64,000 bases of DNA, from positions 7,151-71,150 of the forward strand of contig JBBRSH010000006.1 in NCBI GenBank assembly GCA_038245555.1. Direction: 5' to 3'. This document shows, one piece after another, positions 4,232-51,564 of the stretch. Under the pieces are notes generated by a model. The model did not search any database. It was not told the origin of the DNA and saw only the letters and a program-made list of their open reading frames with translations. A program made the position numbers and the translations under genes. Source of the DNA: Pyrinomonadales bacterium (GTDB lineage Bacteria; Acidobacteriota; Blastocatellia; Pyrinomonadales; Pyrinomonadaceae). The stretch's first letter is position 1. Each line of letters opens with the position of its first letter.

Positions 4232-5146
4232 ATGCGTTACGTAATTGTATTCGTCGCCGTCATTTTTTTGTTTACGTCATGTCAGAAGCCTCCAGCAACG
4301 GTTAATAACGCGTCTTCTCCGGCTGCCGCGTCCGCCACCGAGAAGCGCTATCCGCTAAAGGGCAAGATAATCAGCGTTGATAAGGATGCCAAAAAGGCCA
4401 AGATCGAGCATGAAAGTATTCCTGGCTATATGGATGGCATGACAATGGACTTTCCGATCCACGAAGACTGGGTTTGGAAGGAACTTACGCCGGGCGCCGA
4501 GATACGGGCCGAATTAGTCGTCGATAGCACCGCCAAGGATCCGTTCTGGCTTGAAAAGATCGGAATAATTCAATTGCCCGGCTCGGATCAGCCCAATGTG
4601 CCCGTCAACGAGAAATTTGCGCAAGTCGGACAGCCTGTGCCTGATTTTTCGTTGACCAATCAGGACGGCAAACCCATATCGATCAAGGACTTCCGCGGCA
4701 AGGCCCTCGCGATCACGTTTATTTACTCCAAGTGCCCGCTTCCCGATTACTGCATCCGGATGTCGACCAATTTCAGCGATCTTGCGAATCAGTTAAAGAC
4801 GGACGCCGCGCTGAAGGACAAGATCCGCTTGCTCAGTATTTCTTTCGACCCGGCAAACGACACGCCCGCCAAATTGCGGTCCTACGGCATCGGTTACCTC
4901 GGCAACGACCCAAAGACTAAGTTTGATGTCTGGCAATTAGCAGTTGGTAAAGATGAGGAGGTGCGAAAGATCGCCGACTTTTTTGGCCTGCGATACGAGG
5001 TAGACGCCAAAGACAAGACACAGATCAACCATTCGCTGCGGACGGCCGTTATATCACCCGAGGGCAAAGTCACAAAGATCTTTCCCGGAAATGAATGGAC
5101 GCCAGCCGAGCTGTTGAAAGAACTCGAAGCCGCAAGCAGTAAGTAG
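4232..5146 (+). CDS. SCO1/SenC-family copper chaperone lipoprotein with an N-terminal CusF-like copper-binding domain
   Basis: Lipobox LFTSC. N-terminal domain KGKIISVDKDAKKAKIEHESIPGYMDGMTMDFPI is a CusF-like MxM motif. C-terminal thioredoxin fold: PDFSLTNQDGKPISIKDFRGKALAITFIYSKCPLPDYC, ISFDPANDTP and INHSLRTAVISPEG. Confidence 0.85.
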   Translation: MRYVIVFVAVIFLFTSCQKPPATVNNASSPAAASATEKRYPLKGKIISVDKDAKKAKIEHESIPGYMDGMTMDFPIHEDWVWKELTPGAEIRAELVVDSTAKDPFWLEKIGIIQLPGSDQPNVPVNEKFAQVGQPVPDFSLTNQDGKPISIKDFRGKALAITFIYSKCPLPDYCIRMSTNFSDLANQLKTDAALKDKIRLLSISFDPANDTPAKLRSYGIGYLGNDPKTKFDVWQLAVGKDEEVRKIADFFGLRYEVDAKDKTQINHSLRTAVISPEGKVTKIFPGNEWTPAELLKELEAASSK

Positions 5147-5276
5147 TGATGTCGCGACTGATTCGCCTTCAGTAGCCAGAATTGATCCGTGCACGAATAG
5201 ATGATGGCACCCGCCCCAAACAGGCGGTGCGATATTGAAAGTAAATTTGACTATTTATTAGTAGGAGGCGGGCTTG

Positions 5277-5362
5277 TTTTATAGTCAATGCAACTCAATC
5301 GCAACACCAAAAAACACCATGACGGTGCAGGAGACGGAAGAGCACTTGACTTACGGCTTGTC
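5277..5362. repeat. left arm of an imperfect inverted repeat of about 85 bp (partner at 6310-6392)
   Basis: 5277.. ttttatagtcaatgcaactcaatcgcaacaccaaaaaacaccatgacggtgcaggagacggaagagcacttgacttacggc. Reverse complement of 6310-6392 is ctttattgtcaacgcaactcaagcccaacaccaaaaaagcattatgacggtgcaggagacggtagtacgcttgacttgcagc. Roughly 80 percent identical by hand alignment. Confidence 0.8.
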
Positions 5363-6853: not shown

Positions 6854-8905
6854 CTAGTAGACGTATGCGTTAGGGGCAGGCATGTCGCCGTTTGAGCCGA
6901 AGTTGACGGCGGCGAAACCTGTGGTTGAACGCTGTTCGAACCACGTGCCGCTGCTTGGGCGAAACACTGCGACGTCGGCCTTTCCGTCACCATCGTAATC
7001 GCCCGGTGCCGGCAAGTCCGTCGATATGCCAAATCCCGCTCCGTAGAAAGAGAGGTCTTCGCTTCTGAGGACATACCAGATTCCCGTCGACGGTCTCCAG
7101 ACCGCCACATCCGTTTTGCCGTCGCCAGTGTAATCGGCCGGTACGATCTTATCGCCCGCCGCCCCAAACTGGATGGCAGAGAACGATCCATCCCCACTGT
7201 TGAGGAGATACCAATAATGTGTCGACGGCCGGTAGACCGCGATATCGCTCTTGCCGTCGCCGTCAAAATCACCAATGGCCGGCTTGTCCTCGGCAATTCC
7301 AAATTGCACCGCCGAAAAGCCCGCGGTCGATTGCTGCAGGTACCAGGTGCCGGTCGAGGGCCGGAACACAGCCGTGTCCGCCTTTCCATCGCAATCAAAA
7401 TCTCCGGGTGCCGGAATGTCTCCGTTTGATCCGAACTGAGCACCGAAAAACGTGTTGTCCTCGCTCCTCAAAACATACCAGGTCCCGTTCGACGGCCTGA
7501 ACACAGCAACATCCGTCTTGCCGTCACCTGTGTAATCGCCGGGTACGATAGTATCCGCCGCGTCTCCGAAACGAGATGCGACAAATCCGTCCTGCGAGCC
7601 CTGGATATACCATGTACTGTCCGCCGGCCGGTAAACGGATGCATCTGCTCTGCCGTCGCCGTCATAATCGAAAAGAGTGTACGTGAACGTCCGCTCGAAC
7701 GCTCCAATGTCGGACCCGTTGCCCGGAGCCGCGTTTGGAGTTCTGGGATCGTCATAGGGCCGCGTTCGTCCACGCTGGTCGGTCAAGATCGCGGGGCTGT
7801 TGCCCTTATCGATCGCCGGGCTGCGGTTCTGAAGAGCCCGTGTCAAGGTCGCTCCGCCGTTGTCGCGGAGTGCTCCGATACGGGGATCGATCGGGTTTGC
7901 TGTGGTGCCGAGCTGATTTGTCGTTCCGCCCAGGCCTTCGCTGCCATCAGAGTTGCCGACGAGGTTGAATGTTCCGCCGAATGCCAGTCCGAGGCTCGCC
8001 CGTCCCACAAGGTCGGGGCCGTCCGTAGCAAAATTCAACGCGATAAGATCATTGTTGAGCGTGGCGGTAAACGTGTTGAAGACGCCGCCGCCTTTTGCAG
8101 CGACATTGGCCGTCACCGTCGTGTTCGTGAGATTCGCGGTGCCTGTATTGTAAATGCCTCCGCCGCGATTTGCGGCGCTATTTCCGTCGAAGGTGCTGTT
8201 CGCCGTATTGATCGTTGTACTTGTCCCGCCATAGACGGCCCCGCCGCTGCCGCCATTACCGGCGGTGTTAGCGTTGAGCGTGCTCCCCGTGATATTTAGC
8301 GTTGCGCTGTCGAACATGAATATTCCGCCGCCGTCTTGGCCGGTGTTTCCACTGACGGTCGAATCGGTCAGCGTCAACGTCGCACTATCGAGCATGTATA
8401 TGCCGCCGCCGTTGCCCGCGGCAAAGTTGTTTTTGACGGTGCTGTTCGTAAGCGTCAGCGTGCTGCTGTTGCCCATCAGAATGCCGCCGCCAAGGCCGTT
8501 GTTCGCCAGGCCGTCGCTGATCGTCAGATTAGTCATAGTGACGACCGCACTATTGACAAGTGTGAACACGCGAAAACTGCCGTTCCCCTTAATTGTGAGA
8601 GCCTGCGGTTGCGTGTTGTTGATCGTGATCGCCGCGAGCGGGAGATCGGGAAGCGGGGTCAGCAGGCTGATCGTGAACCGATTTTCCGCGACGCTGTAGC
8701 CGGGGTCGGTGGTGAGGATGTTGAACGAGACCGTGTTGGCCGCGGCGTTGGTGGTAGCGTCGATGATGGCCTGCCGGAGTGTTCCGGCGCCGGCATCGGC
8801 CGTTGAGGAAACGGTTAGGGTTGCAGCCTGTATCGCAGCGGCGCCAAAGATAAGGCACAACGCGAACAGACCAATCTTTACGAAGGAGTTTTTAAGTAGG
8901 GACAT
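6854..8905 (-). CDS. secreted repeat protein with an N-terminal right-handed beta-helix (CSLREA-like / polymorphic-membrane-protein-type GGG repeats) and six C-terminal FG-GAP/VCBS-like repeats
   Basis: 683 aa. Signal peptide MSLLKNSFVKIGLFALCLIFGAAAIQA. GTLRQAIIDAT, then repeated NxGGGIxxxxSxxTLTNSTVxxN units. Six units of about 44 aa follow the pattern DYDGDGKxDxAVFRPSxGxWYxxxSxxxFxxxQFG. Confidence 0.85.
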   Translation of the reverse strand: MSLLKNSFVKIGLFALCLIFGAAAIQAATLTVSSTADAGAGTLRQAIIDATTNAAANTVSFNILTTDPGYSVAENRFTISLLTPLPDLPLAAITINNTQPQALTIKGNGSFRVFTLVNSAVVTMTNLTISDGLANNGLGGGILMGNSSTLTLTNSTVKNNFAAGNGGGIYMLDSATLTLTDSTVSGNTGQDGGGIFMFDSATLNITGSTLNANTAGNGGSGGAVYGGTSTTINTANSTFDGNSAANRGGGIYNTGTANLTNTTVTANVAAKGGGVFNTFTATLNNDLIALNFATDGPDLVGRASLGLAFGGTFNLVGNSDGSEGLGGTTNQLGTTANPIDPRIGALRDNGGATLTRALQNRSPAIDKGNSPAILTDQRGRTRPYDDPRTPNAAPGNGSDIGAFERTFTYTLFDYDGDGRADASVYRPADSTWYIQGSQDGFVASRFGDAADTIVPGDYTGDGKTDVAVFRPSNGTWYVLRSEDNTFFGAQFGSNGDIPAPGDFDCDGKADTAVFRPSTGTWYLQQSTAGFSAVQFGIAEDKPAIGDFDGDGKSDIAVYRPSTHYWYLLNSGDGSFSAIQFGAAGDKIVPADYTGDGKTDVAVWRPSTGIWYVLRSEDLSFYGAGFGISTDLPAPGDYDGDGKADVAVFRPSSGTWFEQRSTTGFAAVNFGSNGDMPAPNAYVY

Positions 8906-13628: not shown

Positions 13629-14945
13629 GTGAAAGCTTCGCAAATTATCGAAAATACAAGTGTGGATCAGTTTGCGAAACAAAATACGATTTCGCAGGAA
13701 TTGAATCTTTTCCGGGAATCAATAAGTATTGCTTTCTCCTCGATCCGCGTTAATCCGACTCAGTCCGGCCTGACGATTGTCGGCATTCTGGTCGGCGTCG
13801 CGGTTGTCGTCATCGTTTCGTCGCTGCTCCAAGGTGCTCAGGATCTAATCGTAAATTCCACCGCAGCTTTCGCTCCAAACGTGGTTCGGATCGAAAAAGC
13901 GTCATTTCAGGATTTCGGTGCGGACGGCCAGGCATTTGCGGAAGCGCAATCAAAACGCCCGGATATATTTGCAAACGATTTGGAGTTCCTGATAGGCAGG
14001 CTTGGCGATACTCTCGAAATTGGTGCTCAATCCGATGCCAGTTTGCCCGCAAGACGAAATGATAAAACCCTCGATGGCGTCTTTATTCAGGGCGTGACAC
14101 CGAATATTACCGAGCTGTCAAATGTGAAGATCGCGGCGGGACGATCCCTGACCGCAACCGACGACCTTTTCCGCCGCCGCGTCTGCATTATCGGACAAGA
14201 CGTTGTAGACGACCTGTTTGGAGGTCGCGTCCCCATCGGCGAAGAGATCAGGATTGGCCAGTTGCCGTATAAGGTTGTCGGCGTTGCCGGGGCCAAAGGT
14301 TCGTCATTTGGCAGTTCGCAGGATGGATTTATCCAGATCCCGCTCGGGACATTCGGGACCATCTTTGGCAGCCGGTCGCGCTCGATCGCTGTATTGGCAA
14401 AAGCCCGTGAACCGGAAAAATTCTCGCTCGAGGAAGTTGAAGAAATGCTTCGCGTCGCAATGCGGATCCGGCATGGCTTAATATCGACCGGAAAGAATGA
14501 CGATTTTAGCCTGGTGACAGCCAAAAGCGTTCGCGCTTTTTCCGGCACCCTGACCGGAATAATCGCTACCATCATATATCCGCTAACCGGCATTTCTCTT
14601 TTTGTTGGCGGCGTAGTCGTGATGAACATGATGCTTTCGTCGGTGACAGAACGTACCCGCGAGATCGGCTTACGGATCGCTTTGGGTGCCCGGAGAGTCG
14701 ATATACTGACACAATTTTTGATCGAAACAACGACCCTCACACTACTTGGCGGCATGATCGGGGTCGTTGTTGCAGCTGGGTTGATCTGGGTGCTGGCTTT
14801 GTCAACGGGACTGCCGCTGACTGTTCCGGTATCATCCGTCTTTTTGGCGATCGGTGTTTCGTGTGTGGTGGGAATAGTTTTTGGCGTAGTGCCGGCTAGA
14901 AGGGCGTCAAAACTCGACCCGATCGATGCATTAAGGTCCGAATAG
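13629..14945 (+). CDS. ABC transporter permease, MacB/FtsX family (periplasmic MacB_PCD plus FtsX domain)
   Basis: 438 aa. N-terminal TM helix, large periplasmic domain, C-terminal FtsX block ERTREIGLRIALGARRVDILTQFLIE..PARRASKLDPIDALRSE. Confidence 0.9.
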   Translation: MKASQIIENTSVDQFAKQNTISQELNLFRESISIAFSSIRVNPTQSGLTIVGILVGVAVVVIVSSLLQGAQDLIVNSTAAFAPNVVRIEKASFQDFGADGQAFAEAQSKRPDIFANDLEFLIGRLGDTLEIGAQSDASLPARRNDKTLDGVFIQGVTPNITELSNVKIAAGRSLTATDDLFRRRVCIIGQDVVDDLFGGRVPIGEEIRIGQLPYKVVGVAGAKGSSFGSSQDGFIQIPLGTFGTIFGSRSRSIAVLAKAREPEKFSLEEVEEMLRVAMRIRHGLISTGKNDDFSLVTAKSVRAFSGTLTGIIATIIYPLTGISLFVGGVVVMNMMLSSVTERTREIGLRIALGARRVDILTQFLIETTTLTLLGGMIGVVVAAGLIWVLALSTGLPLTVPVSSVFLAIGVSCVVGIVFGVVPARRASKLDPIDALRSE

Positions 14946-25247: not shown

Positions 25248-26117
25248 GTGCAAAACGTAATCGATTTCGCTCCTTCGCGAGCCGAAAAATTAAATTGGAG
25301 CACAATCATCGGAGTCAGTCTGTTTCATCTGGCTGCGGTGGGTGCGATATTTACATTTAGCTGGCAGAATCTTGCCGTGACGCTGGTCCTCTGGTGGATC
25401 GGTGCGAGTTGGGGCATCGGCATCGGGTATCACCGTCTGCTGACGCACCGCGGTTTTACTACCTCCAAATGGATGACGCGCTTCCTCGCGACGTGCGGCA
25501 CAATAGCACTGCAGTCAGGTCCGATCTCATGGGTTACGACTCACCGCCTCCATCATGCCTTCACCGACACGGACCGCGATCCGCATAGCCCGCGTAACGG
25601 TATTTGGTGGTCGCATATGGGCTGGATTTTTAAGGGCACGGCGCAGATACAGCCCGAAGCAGTGATGCAGCGCTACTCGCCCGACTTGATGAAGGACCCG
25701 TATCTGCGGTTTATCGACAAATATTATTACTTTGCGACGATCTTTCTCGCGATCGGTTTATTCGCAGTCGGCGGTTGGTCGATATTGTTCTGGGCGGTCG
25801 CTCTCCGCATCGTCGCCAGTTGGCACTTTACGTGGCTCGTTAATTCCGCGACGCATCTCTGGGGTTATCGCCGTTTTGAGACACGCGATGATTCGCGAAA
25901 CAACGTATTAGTTGCCGCCGTCACCTTCGGCGAAGGCTGGCACAATAACCACCATGCCTTTCCGCGTTCGGCCAAACACGGCCTCACCTGGAAAGAATTT
26001 GATATCAATTGGTATCAACTCCGCATCCTCGAAACATTCGGCCTGATCAAGAACGTCTACGCTTATGACATCGCGACCGAGTCCGAGACGCCGAAAGAGA
26101 TGCGCAAAGCGGCATAG
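25248..26117 (+). CDS. acyl-CoA (delta-9 type) fatty-acid desaturase
   Basis: GTG start. Three histidine boxes: HRLLTHR, HRLHHAFTD and HNNHHAFP. Confidence 0.9.
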   Translation: MQNVIDFAPSRAEKLNWSTIIGVSLFHLAAVGAIFTFSWQNLAVTLVLWWIGASWGIGIGYHRLLTHRGFTTSKWMTRFLATCGTIALQSGPISWVTTHRLHHAFTDTDRDPHSPRNGIWWSHMGWIFKGTAQIQPEAVMQRYSPDLMKDPYLRFIDKYYYFATIFLAIGLFAVGGWSILFWAVALRIVASWHFTWLVNSATHLWGYRRFETRDDSRNNVLVAAVTFGEGWHNNHHAFPRSAKHGLTWKEFDINWYQLRILETFGLIKNVYAYDIATESETPKEMRKAA

Positions 26118-26167
26118 GTCAAAAGTAAAAGAGTAAGCTGGCGAGCCAGCGTCGAGAGCAGTCGAAA

Positions 26168-26222
26168 GGGCAAAACGTAAACCATGTGTTTACTTTTGCC
26201 CTTTTACTTTTTACTTTTAACT
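26168..26222 (+). terminator. probable intrinsic terminator after the desaturase gene
   Basis: gggcaaaacgtaaac / gtttacttttgccc is a stem of about 14 bp with one bulge, followed by the T-rich tract ttttactttttactttt. An A-rich mirror (caaaagtaaaagagtaag, 26118-26138) lies upstream. Confidence 0.45.
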
Positions 26223-31605: not shown

Positions 31606-32037
31606 ATGACCAAACCAGAAAAACTCGCAGAGATCACGGCGGAGCAACGCGCCTTTGCCGCAAATGCTCTCCACAGCCTGCCATTTTCAAAACTCATCGG
31701 GATGAAGCTCGTCGATCTCCGGCCCGACGAGGCCGTACTGAGCATCGAGATGCGGGACGACCTGCGGCAGCCGAACGGCGTCCTCCATGGCGGCGTCACG
31801 GCGACATTGATCGACACCGCGATGGCATTTGCCGTGCGGACGCGCCTTGCGATGACCGAAGCGACCGCGACCATCGATTTGACAGTGCACTATCTCCGGC
31901 CCCATCTAACCGGTGTTTTTACGTGCACGGCAAAGGTCGTTCGGGCCGGAAAACGTATTTTTACTGTATCCGCGGATGTTCACAACGAGTACGGTAAGCT
32001 CATCGCAACGGGGCTATCGACCTACACGAAGGTTTAA
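31606..32037 (+). CDS. PaaI-family (hotdog-fold) thioesterase
   Basis: 143 aa. NGVLHGGVTATLIDTAMAFAV is the PaaI/4HBT signature. Confidence 0.85.
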   Translation: MTKPEKLAEITAEQRAFAANALHSLPFSKLIGMKLVDLRPDEAVLSIEMRDDLRQPNGVLHGGVTATLIDTAMAFAVRTRLAMTEATATIDLTVHYLRPHLTGVFTCTAKVVRAGKRIFTVSADVHNEYGKLIATGLSTYTKV

Positions 32038-32106
32038 CCACATCGGAACATAGAACACAATAGGTCAAAAACTTTGTGTTCTATGATTCTATGTGGTGAA
32101 TTTCTT

Positions 32107-33990
32107 ATGGAGCAACTCAAGAAGTTTGCACGATATTTTAGGCCGTACAAGTGGACGGTCTTGGGCGGAATATTGTGCATCCTCTGTTCGATGGCGTTCG
32201 GGTTGTTTATTCCGTACATGGTCGGCAAAGCGATTGACGACCTCGGTGCGGGCATCACCCGGGACAAGATCATCTATTATCCGCTCGTCATCCTCGGCAT
32301 CAATCTGATGAGCGGTGTGTTTTTATTTTTTCAGCGGCGACTGCTTATCAATACTTCGCGGCATATCGAGTTCGACATGCGGCAAGATTTTTATGCCACG
32401 CTGGTCAACCAGCCGCTTGAGTATTTTCATGCAAATCGCGTCGGTGACCTGATGGCCCGTGCGACCAACGACCTCGCGGCAGTCCGCCAGATCGTCGGGC
32501 CGATGATCCTTTACAGCTTTCAGGCGATATTTGCGCTATGCATAAGCTTACCGATAATGCTCAATATCTCGGTCAAGCTGACCCTCCTGCTGCTGATCCC
32601 GATGCCGCTCGTTTCGCTGACAGTAAAGTACCTCGGTGAGCAGATCCACAAGCGATTCGAAAAGATACAGGAGTTTTTCTCCGACATCACGGCTCGTGCC
32701 CAGGAGAACCTGACCGGAGTCCGTGTCGTCCGGGCATACGCCCAGGAAGACGCTGAGATCGAACAGTTTCAAAAGCTCAATCGCGAATATGCACGCAAGA
32801 ACCTGCATCTCGTCAAATTTGCCGCGGCGATGCGGCCGCTGCTCTTTTTCTTTATCGGTCTTGGTTTTGTGATCATTGTAGCCGTTGGTGTTCCCATGGC
32901 GGTCCGCGGCGAGATCACGGCGGGTGACTTTACGGCCTTTATTCTCTACCTCCAGCGAATGATATGGTATCTGATCGCCCTTGGCTATGTGGTCAATCTC
33001 TACCAACGCGGCACCGCCTCGCTCAAGCGGTTCAACGAGATCCTCGACGCCGAACCCGCGATCAAAGACGCCCAGGACGTCCGCGAGCAGGAGCCGGTCA
33101 AAGGAAAGGTCGAGTTTCGCGACCTGACGTTCGCCTACAACGGCAAACCCGTCTTGTCTGACATCAATCTCGTGGTAGAGCAAGGAATGACGGTCGCCCT
33201 GGTCGGAAAGACCGGCAGCGGCAAATCGACGCTCGTCAGCCTGATCCCGCGATTGATGGACGCTCCCGTTGGCACGGTCCTCGTCGATGGCGTCCCGCTA
33301 AACGAATTTCCGATCGCTCAACTTCGGCGGTCGATCGGCTTTGTCCCGCAGGAGACGTTTCTTTTTAGCGATACCCTAGCCGCGAATATTGCATTCGGTG
33401 TGGAGAATTTTGGACCGCAGAGACACGGAGACGCAGAGTCAGAACCAGGAGCGATAGCGACTGGGTCCGCGACAAATAGAAAAGACGCCTCGATCAGCGT
33501 CTATCCACGTTCATCTGCTGTTAGTGCTTTTTCCTCCGCGTCTCCGCGTCTCCGCGGTGAAATATCCGTCGAGGCCGCAGCCCAGATCGCCGGGCTTGCC
33601 GATGATATTCAGGAATTTCCCGGAAAGTACGAGCAGCTTGTCGGCGAACGCGGCATCACTCTTTCAGGCGGCCAGAAGCAGCGAACGGCGATCGCCCGTG
33701 CCATCATGCGGGACCCGCGGATACTAATACTCGACGACTCCCTTTCGGCGGTGGATACCTACACCGAGGAAACTATCCTTCACAACCTTCGGGACGTTCG
33801 ATCGGGGCGAACAACGATCATCGTGTCTCATCGCGTCTCGACCATCCGCGACGCAGACCTCATTTGCGTGCTCCACGACGGCCAAATTATTGAACGCGGC
33901 ACCCACGACGAACTCCTCGCCCTCGATGGAGAATACGCCGATCTCTACGAACGCCAATTGCTGGAAGAGGAACTAGAAGCAACTGACTAA
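32107..33990 (+). CDS. ABC exporter, fused permease/ATPase (MsbA/lipid-A-exporter-like), carrying an in-frame insertion of about 50 aa in the NBD
   Basis: Start placed at [16 protein letters not shown] (the track start is 32074). Six-TM ABC_membrane domain. Walker [11 protein letters not shown]-loop FVPQETFLF, signature LSGGQKQR, Walker B ILILDD, H-loop VSHR. Confidence 0.9.
33409..33561. repeat. palindromic element of about 150 nt inserted in frame in the ABC exporter gene
   Basis: Arms CCGCAGAGACACGGAGACGCAGAG (33415-33438) and CTCCGCGTCTCCGCGTCTCCGCGG (33534-33557) are reverse complements at 21 of 24 positions. Each arm is a tandem 8-mer. An inner hairpin AGACGC-N8-GCGTCT lies at 33483-33502. 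It encodes [51 protein letters not shown]. Confidence 0.8.
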
Positions 33991-51504: not shown

Positions 51505-51564
51505 AGCGAGTGATACTTGTAGCTCTGTTTAACCTGCCTCCAGCTTTAGCTGGAGGTACCGTCG

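Follow-up and report, generated by a model that had tools for sequence, protein, structure and literature searches.

The 64-kb window analysed here belongs to one contig of a Pyrinomonadales metagenome-assembled genome (MAG) and contains, on its plus strand, a gene for an ABCB/MsbA/SmdA-like half-transporter, called the ABC gene below. Its open reading frame (ORF) is open from 32074 to 33990, and the ATG at 32107 is probably the start of the gene, the N-terminus MEQLKKF being common to its orthologues. Between NIAFGVEN and ISVEAAAQ of the deduced protein lie 51 additional codons whose DNA is palindromic. We describe this in-frame insert and the codon position it occupies in the ABC gene, termed site 1, in the window and in related genomes, where site 1 is held by a changing set of unrelated hairpin families. 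Copy counts within the genome cover the 64-kb window; L and P numbers denote loci and proteins, respectively.

Pfam searches revealed matches to ABC_membrane and ABC_tran in the ABC protein, the latter spread over residues 350-545 although the profile has only 137 positions. All NCBIfam models for ABC exporters were split into two stretches near residue 434, and none reached its equivalog cut-off. The ABC motifs are intact on both sides of the insert. In alignments with solved ABCB structures, the stretch from residue 434 to residue 489 of the query corresponds to chain residues 496 to 503, where the structures have a 6-residue junction. Of 82 half-transporters (representatives of 50%-identity clusters), 55 have 39 residues between G and LSGGQ (G...LSGGQ spacing), compared to 87 residues in the window protein. 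Both comparisons agree with a reading of this DNA from the sequence alone (the sequence-only reading), which had taken the junction to be short in canonical proteins. Homologues at 56% identity or less show the canonical spacing without extra residues at site 1, and relative to canonical homologues the insert adds about 48 residues. Site 1 is in a structurally variable part of the helical subdomain of ABC domains.

The sequence-only reading had described the insert as an in-frame, stop-free palindrome with a length that is a multiple of three, with arms complementary at 21 of 24 positions, built from tandem 8-mers, and with a second hairpin in the centre. All of this is found in the DNA (Table 1). 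The arms at 33415-33438 and 33534-33557 pair at 21/24 positions, the three mismatches all being A:C, and show a period of 8 nucleotides (nt; CRCNGAGA). A repeat-finding tool extends the inverted repeat to 41 nt with 76% identity, and among the inverted repeats of the window with arms within 250 nt it is the top-ranked one, having the longest arms. The termini of this arm family, called A, read ...ACCGC and GCGGT.... Matches to Rfam at the gathering threshold or in a tRNA scan were not detected in the window.

Between the A arms we found parts of two other families, P and K. The P unit folds as a small hairpin in both the sense and the antisense fold. It is 27/28 and 26/27 identical to intergenic copies that directly follow the stop codon of the ABC gene in L040 and L005, and its head, GTCAGAACC, is common to a further family, B. 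Intergenic context was called here and below by ORF length (short ORFs over the locus), not from gene annotation. Close relatives lacking the P unit have a protein that is 11 amino acids (aa) shorter. The K remnant is 24/31 identical to an arm of an intergenic K hairpin in L071 (11779-11858). The window copy is a composite in which at least three families are nested, the outer A arms enclosing a P unit and the decayed arm of a K hairpin.

Table 1. Position of the ABC gene, the parts of its insert and a second insertion site in the window.
Feature	Position	Strand	Remarks
ABCB/MsbA/SmdA-like half-transporter (transmembrane and nucleotide-binding domain)	32107-33990	+	ORF list, Pfam, NCBIfam, structure alignments
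Second insertion hotspot, FAY-NGK-PVL turn at start of nucleotide-binding domain	33130-33156	+	empty in the window
Left arm of long inverted repeat	33407-33447		core A arm ACCGCAGAGACACGGAGACGCAGAG at 33414-33438, 8-nt units
In-frame insert, 153 nt, 51 codons, no stop	33409-33561	+	sequence, alignments, AlphaFold2
P unit, 28-nt REP-like stem-loop (TCAGAACC-AGGAGCGATAGCGACTGG-GT; REP, repetitive extragenic palindrome)	33439-33466		nested directly inside left arm
Central small hairpin AGACGC-N8-GCGTCT	33483-33502		sequence, fold
Decayed right arm of K hairpin (ATCAGCGTCTATCCACGTTCATCTGCTGTTA)	33493-33523		match to L071; no intact partner
Right arm of long inverted repeat	33525-33565		core A arm CTCCGCGTCTCCGCGTCTCCGCGGT at 33534-33558

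To describe site 1 across relatives, we used the ABC orthologues of 80 species-level genomes with their flanks (MAG contigs, flanks of up to 10 kb, about 1.2 Mb in total), which gives 81 loci including the window. The site-1 segment has at least 30 aa, corresponding to at least 13 extra residues, in 63/81 species, and at most 25 aa in 12 species; the longest has 82 aa. A bare and essentially canonical segment of 17 aa (VDRENGRETISVEKAAA) is found in two species (L073 and L077). The 120 closest proteins (77-92% identity) all have something at site 1, with variable length and content; where the source gives a name, it is Pyrinomonadaceae or Chloracidobacterium. Among these 120 proteins the two ends of the insert read like reverse-complement translations of one another, for example PQRRGDAE...PPATAGGSD, GSPPYEGGVAA...PLLRKEGS, SKVQSPKSK...DLGLGTLDLG and GKLKIES...SQFSLLNSQ. 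At the DNA level, a strong inverted repeat (score of at least 12) is present in 36/81 site-1 segments compared to 8/810 control windows of the same length in the same genes. The inverted arms measure 13-35 nt, mostly 20-35 nt, and can be sorted into ten or more families that are unrelated to one another (A, B, C, D, E, H, I, J, K and L). The remaining 45/81 species have an intact gene and no strong inverted repeat at site 1. The reading frame is open and free of stops in the window and, without exception, in the about 200 orthologues inspected, whatever the family or length of the insert.

The closest orthologue of the window protein (L201, 92% aa identity) shares the same 153-nt composite, and the site-1 feature was seen altogether in 80 independent assemblies and about 120 metagenome proteins. 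Site 1 appears to have been occupied since an ancestor of the Pyrinomonadaceae-level group, and the insert is not a private recent insertion. The second hotspot in the same gene, empty in the window, is filled in 17/81 loci with 13-41 extra residues (L002, L003, L008, L018, L034, L047, L075 and others). Several of its occupants have hairpin arms of B, C or a family M (GCCACAGAGAACACAGAGAAC).

Hairpins at site 1 are often nested in one another and are exchanged rapidly. Written from the outside inwards, the arrangement is A(B(J)B)A in L052, A(B)A in L059 and A(P, K-remnant)A in the window. Arm families differ even between proteins with 96-98% identity in their remaining sequence. Unrelated inserts were found in 36 of the 98 orthologue pairs that share at least 95% identity apart from site 1. 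Identity outside site 1 reaches 98.4% between P0101 (H) and P0118 (B) and 98.2% between P0030 (A) and P0062 (C), two pairs whose inserts differ. The outer boundaries of different families nearly coincide, on the left after GVE.. and on the right before (K/E)MTVE. In the pair L043 and L045 the flanks of site 1 are identical at 148/150 and 149/150 nt, whereas the two cassettes (165 and 159 nt) are for the most part unrelated. Judged from these comparisons, cassette replacement at site 1 seems to outpace point substitution in its flanks.

The L043/L045 pair revealed further details. The ABC gene of this pair is a mosaic with 98-100% nt identity in its 3' two-thirds and 71-90% in its 5' third, which indicates that lineages recently exchanged homologous DNA; within the near-identical part of the gene the two site-1 cassettes are completely different. 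A local recombination tract around the cassette was considered and rejected, as the dip in identity consists of columns adjoining the insert and the true flanks are those given above. In L045 the left arm has CAAAG in place of the A-family CAGAG in each of its four 8-nt units, and the A-type complement is retained in the right arm. The change appears to have spread in concert through one arm, by homogenisation of its units, and it breaks the pairing. In L043 the K hairpin is complete; of this hairpin relatives retain only the right arm. These changes in L045 and L043 look local.

The families found at site 1 are not restricted to it. Arms of A, B, C, D, K and P were also detected elsewhere in the fetched loci, namely after stop codons, in intergenic DNA and in the second hotspot of the ABC gene; P and C copies are located right after the ABC stop codon, B and K copies in intergenic DNA. 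A de novo scan of 1.27 Mb revealed 114 strong hairpins, most of them covered by short ORFs only. Many of these have arms of tandem 7-8-nt units, and several lie directly after stop codons. Scanning metagenome contigs with an A-arm pattern detected at least 120 loci. Among the 122 sites in the matches listed, 59 are accompanied by a partner arm no more than 220 nt away, the loops measuring 7-185 nt and the termini being ...ACCGC/GCGGT...; most of the listed copies are covered by short ORFs only, and none of the 122 sites is in frame in an ORF carrying ABC motifs. In-frame copies in other genes do exist. A-type hairpins are in frame in an ORF with a VWA domain (L017, 14267-14340), in a GT2/GT21 glycosyltransferase (L095) and in a GH92 glycosidase (L106), each in the frame that gives RRDAE...SAS.RL.GE. 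Other in-frame hairpins were found in PurL (L074, 16433-16503) and in a TrmFO/GIDA family gene (L008, 20009-20108). Such cases are rare: the roughly 1000 other genes in this 1.2 Mb contain two or three of them.

Target-site duplications were not found, since flanking direct repeats at 50 A-type hairpins including the window have a mean length of 2.2 nt compared to 2.7 nt at random positions. A gene between A arms in L124, a 15-kb metagenome locus, was considered as a transposase and rejected: the arms belong to independent intergenic hairpins in two regions (4860-5310 and 8160-8690), and inspection of the translations of the adjoining ORFs revealed no transposase-like features. The A arms of this locus yield spurious ORFs, e.g. 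with the peptide LRLGVSAVKNF, and so illustrate how the repeats seed false database proteins. In L033 a DUF559 gene (Vsr-like endonuclease fold; 13811-14511, minus strand) has one C-family palindrome (GCTCCCCTCCTTACGAAGGAGGGG) on one side and two on the other, which may hint at what the C family travels with.

Three other palindromes of the window deserve mention. A hairpin at 32034-32100 with 27-nt arms (TTAACCACATCGGAACATAGAACACAA / TTGTGTTCTATGATTCTATGTGGTGAA) lies between a gene for a hotdog-fold thioesterase and the ABC start codon. A hairpin is present at this position in most of the 80 related loci, and its arm families differ between them, a turnover like that inside the gene. An intergenic hairpin at 26118-26214, whose arms consist of tandem AAAAGT-type units, is located between a desaturase-like ORF (25248-26117) and a sensor-kinase-like ORF; tandem-unit arms of this kind are common in related loci. 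The perfect palindrome CCTCCAGCTTTAGCTGGAGG at 51537-51557, between two minus-strand ORFs, has a B/P-like build of stem, 4-nt loop and stem with another sequence.

The RNA of the insert was folded and compared with shuffled sequences. The sense RNA has a predicted energy of -67.5 kcal/mol (z -4.2; 0/200 shuffles as good) and the antisense RNA a better one of -84.0 kcal/mol (z -8.1). The predicted sense stem has 25 bp and contains the three A:C mismatches. Because of these mismatches, and because it is weaker than the antisense stem, a structure selected in the mRNA is not favoured. The same picture emerges over all site-1 hairpins: A:C is the commonest arm mismatch (37, compared to 22 for G:T plus T:G), and in only 16/36 hairpins is the sense strand more stable than the antisense strand. 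Neither the mismatch spectrum nor the strand comparison supports selection on mRNA structure. An intrinsic terminator on the sense strand was rejected, since within the element the plus strand has no G+C-rich hairpin with a U-tract, and no U-tract follows the stem on the sense strand. The minus strand displays a terminator-like pattern at 33502-33483, where the central hairpin is followed by the T-rich TTTTCTATTTG.

Individual alignments revealed different degrees of conservation for the parts of the insert. The ABC genes of the window and L201 are 85% identical in nt sequence and 61% at third codon positions. Within the insert the identity is 92% for the left A arm, 93% for the P unit, 92% for the loop (33467-33492) and 88% for the right A arm; the K remnant, with 71%, is the fastest-changing part. 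The peptide encoded by the insert is only about 69% identical in this pair, while the A arms and the P unit reach 88-93%, which means that arms and P unit are conserved at the nucleotide level and not via the peptide. Between species whose fourfold-degenerate sites are 45-54% identical, arms of the same family are 81-94% identical, a value that includes an ascertainment bias as the loci were sorted by arm family before identity was measured.

The insert peptides are rich in Ser, Gly, Ala and Pro, contain no Cys and few Ile, Leu, Phe and Tyr, and have a mean hydropathy of -0.84 compared to 0.19 for the rest of the protein. Among 252 single changes that would restore arm pairing, 18 would create stop codons. 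Pairing-restoring changes in the right arm would raise hydrophobicity in 55 cases and lower it in 28, typical ones being Pro to Leu, Ser to Phe and Arg to Cys. The peptide thus looks filtered, without stops and hydrophilic, rather than conserved, and the constraint on it looks weak. AlphaFold2, run with the 81-sequence alignment, gave predicted local distance difference test (pLDDT) values of 27-34 and no secondary structure over the insert; the modest quality of the whole model (mean pLDDT 64.6) weakens, but does not remove, the indication of disorder. The insert is accordingly predicted to form a disordered hydrophilic loop at a position compatible with the fold.

Taken together, the insert is probably made of nested, non-autonomous hairpin repeats of a REP-like kind, and the permissive loop in which they are tolerated in frame probably serves as a landing pad. 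The outer layer is the pair of A arms with tandem 8-nt units ending in ACCGC/GCGGT, and inside it lie the 28-nt P stem-loop and the remnant of a K hairpin. With the NIAFG segment that follows the Q-loop on one side and the next helix of the helical subdomain on the other, the in-frame insert would be translated as a disordered hydrophilic loop of about 48 residues which the transporter tolerates. Site 1 would be a long-lived landing pad at which hairpins have been inserted, nested, swapped and partly deleted since the Pyrinomonadaceae-level ancestor, the host selecting only for an open frame, the lack of stop codons and a soluble peptide. The repeats would have spread as selfish or neutral DNA, and the peptide would be without function. 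As new hairpins are nested inside old ones, an existing hairpin may itself be the target, and a hairpin-recognising enzyme of the HUH type or template switching during replication are candidate mechanisms for this targeting.

The sequence-only reading had proposed a selfish hairpin element inserted in frame into a surface loop. Much of this stands: the insert consists of hairpin-repeat DNA, the loop is absent from distant homologues and from solved structures, and the families occur at unlinked places. A single, newly inserted element has to be given up, because L201 has the same 153-nt composite, the site is filled across the family and the insert is a nest of at least three families. The extra residues are missing from homologues at 56% identity or less, while 63/81 related species have at least 13 of them. 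A blastn search for further copies revealed no second copy of the element in the window; its component families are dispersed in relatives and metagenomes, with some copies in frame.

Several points weigh against tolerated hairpin DNA as the explanation. Neither A nor P nor K has another copy in the 64-kb window, so that dispersal in the source genome is unsupported. No transposase was identified in the window or in the relatives' flanks of up to 10 kb, where RAYT (REP-associated tyrosine transposase) genes were not searched systematically; given this and the lack of target-site duplications, we infer mobility from the distribution of the families only. The concentration at site 1 is extreme, with at least ten families there compared to two or three in-frame hairpins in about 1000 genes, which means that tolerance alone is insufficient and that a selected function or a site-specific mechanism would also fit. 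Nor does tolerance account for replacement at the same boundaries and for the conservation of arm sequences. The latter is far above the neutral expectation, would fit a function at the host level equally well, and is to be read with the ascertainment bias mentioned above. It is possible, if on the whole doubtful, that a structure-specific mechanism, i.e. a hairpin-targeting enzyme or ectopic template switching at stalled forks, swaps and nests cassettes at fixed boundaries faster than point mutation changes them. If true, hairpin-to-hairpin cassette exchange would also act inside a gene of the essential type and keep the arms conserved across species, and the ABC site would be a natural reporter of a behaviour of mobile DNA that has no prior description.

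The extreme concentration, an enrichment of more than 100-fold at site 1 over other genes, could also mean that the hairpin is a selected cis-acting structure, for instance a translation pause that helps domains to fold, an element of mRNA stability or processing, or a protein-bound DNA site, in which the sequence is free and only structure and place are kept. A hairpin retained in 36/81 species despite complete sequence turnover, arms conserved above the neutral expectation, and another hairpin of variable sequence at a fixed place just upstream of the start codon would all suit such a structure. We nevertheless regard it as unlikely. The 45/81 species that have no strong inverted repeat and an intact gene, two of them without any insert, argue against a structure required in cis, without excluding one; mismatches are chiefly A:C and not G:U, the sense strand is not favoured and carries no terminator tail, and the same families are ordinary dispersed repeats elsewhere. 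Moreover, selection on structure only would not conserve the primary sequence. The palindromes could also have been made in place: slippage would expand short tandem units in one arm and intra-strand template switching would copy that arm into its complement, so that nothing moves and lookalikes elsewhere are convergent. Arms of tandem 7-8-nt units, the homogenised arm of L045, the complete K hairpin of L043 where relatives have only its right arm, and the lack of target-site duplications are what such a process would leave behind. Near-identity between unlinked places speaks against it, since the P unit matches intergenic copies in other species at 27/28 positions, B and C arms are near-identical across species and sites, and A arms with defined termini recur in 59 unlinked metagenome hairpins among the matches listed. 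Unrelated H and B cassettes also interchange in 98%-identical proteins, and local mutation cannot interconvert them. An origin in place is in our view improbable, slightly more so than the cis-acting structure.

Two further explanations concern the protein and the data themselves. A stem of 25 bp, as predicted in the transcript, could be a target of RNase III as in the intervening sequences of rRNA, or could be bypassed by the ribosome, and the extra codons would then never appear in the protein. We find this very hard to reconcile with a frame that is open and stop-free in about 200 orthologues, a signature of translation, and with a peptide composition that looks filtered for solubility. In addition, cleavage of the mRNA would part the Walker A half from the half with the signature and Walker B motifs, and the sense stem contains three A:C mismatches. 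Finally, the part of ABC domains that contains site 1 differs from family to family, and an ordinary variable linker might be palindromic by accident, or the palindrome might be an assembly artefact. The fold z-scores of -4.2 (sense) and -8.1 (antisense), the excess over control windows (36/81 versus 8/810) and the presence of the feature in 80 independent assemblies and about 120 metagenome proteins reduce the probability of either to almost nothing, and both were rejected on these grounds.

In-frame palindromic elements are classically known from Rickettsia, where they were described as Rickettsia palindromic elements (RPEs; Ogata et al. 2000, 2002, reviewed in PMC10969869). The sequence-only reading had likened the insert to RPEs. 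The likeness holds for the phenomenon: a palindrome of about 150 nt that can fold as a long hairpin is found in frame in a housekeeping gene with the frame kept, at a place that is predicted here to be compatible with the fold, and several families exist per lineage. Membership does not follow, as target-site duplications and a GTAG/CGTC tag are lacking. The host is an acidobacterium, by MAG sources a free-living soil bacterium, and we regard the relation as an analogy. The arms consist of tandem 8-nt units, in contrast to the long unique palindrome of RPEs that encodes a conserved peptide; in the window three families form a nest; and in-frame copies elsewhere are rare (two or three in about 1000 genes). 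The re-use of one site by at least ten families with rapid turnover is not reported in the RPE texts (PMC10969869). Bacterial MITEs (miniature transposable elements with inverted repeats; Correia, ERIC, Nezha and others) are non-autonomous elements bounded by terminal inverted repeats, mostly intergenic and sometimes fused in frame to host ORFs (PMC10969869). The elements described here resemble them in all these respects; they differ in that direct repeats at their flanks do not exceed the frequency seen at random positions.

REPs inside genes have been described in several phyla (PMC3733652). Di Nocera et al. (2013) reported GTAG- and CGTC-tagged REPs in ORFs as singles, dimers and clusters encoding 20-82 residues, found different REPs at about the same recB site in two Xanthomonas species and argued for neutrality in flexible loops (PMC3733652). 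There as here, the repeats are short, palindromic, mostly extragenic and located downstream of genes (PMC3733652). The P unit, like the B and C units of relatives, corresponds to a REP in being an imperfect palindrome of 20-40 nt; the A arms do not. None of A, P and B has a GTAG or CGTC end tag, as P starts with (G)TCAGAACC and A ends in ACCGC...GCGGT; on one strand each A unit contains an internal CGTC, which does not form a tag at the end. A-type stems have about 25 bp and loops of 7-185 nt, compared to stems of 5-13 bp in the intragenic REPs (PMC3733652). The scale of the hotspot is also far larger here, with 63/81 species, at least ten families and nesting.

In the REPIN/RAYT systems, REP doublets (REPINs) are mobilised by a tyrosine HUH transposase. 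B and C at site 1 are comparable, as they are inverted doublets of a small-palindrome unit, lack target-site duplications and are conserved across species. The P unit of the window, in contrast, is a singlet, and the A family has no internal unit palindrome. The sequence-only reading knew of no equivalent description for this kind of genome. This agrees with our searches of the searchable literature, which revealed no description of such elements in Pyrinomonadaceae or Acidobacteria; in-frame REP-type palindromes as such have been described outside Rickettsia (PMC3733652). The kind of element is thus already known, and what is new is the lineage, the architecture of arms with tandem units and, above all, the persistent, fast-turning and nested hotspot.

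For the annotation of metagenomic proteins this carries a warning, as peptides like SPPYEGG and LLRKEGS are translated repeats and not conserved motifs. In-frame palindromic repeats, best known from Rickettsia, are now also found in free-living soil Acidobacteria. In these bacteria site 1 provides a natural experiment on how hairpin repeats choose their targets and what keeps repeat sequences constant, and on how large a load of arbitrary sequence can be tolerated in a loop of the nucleotide-binding domain.

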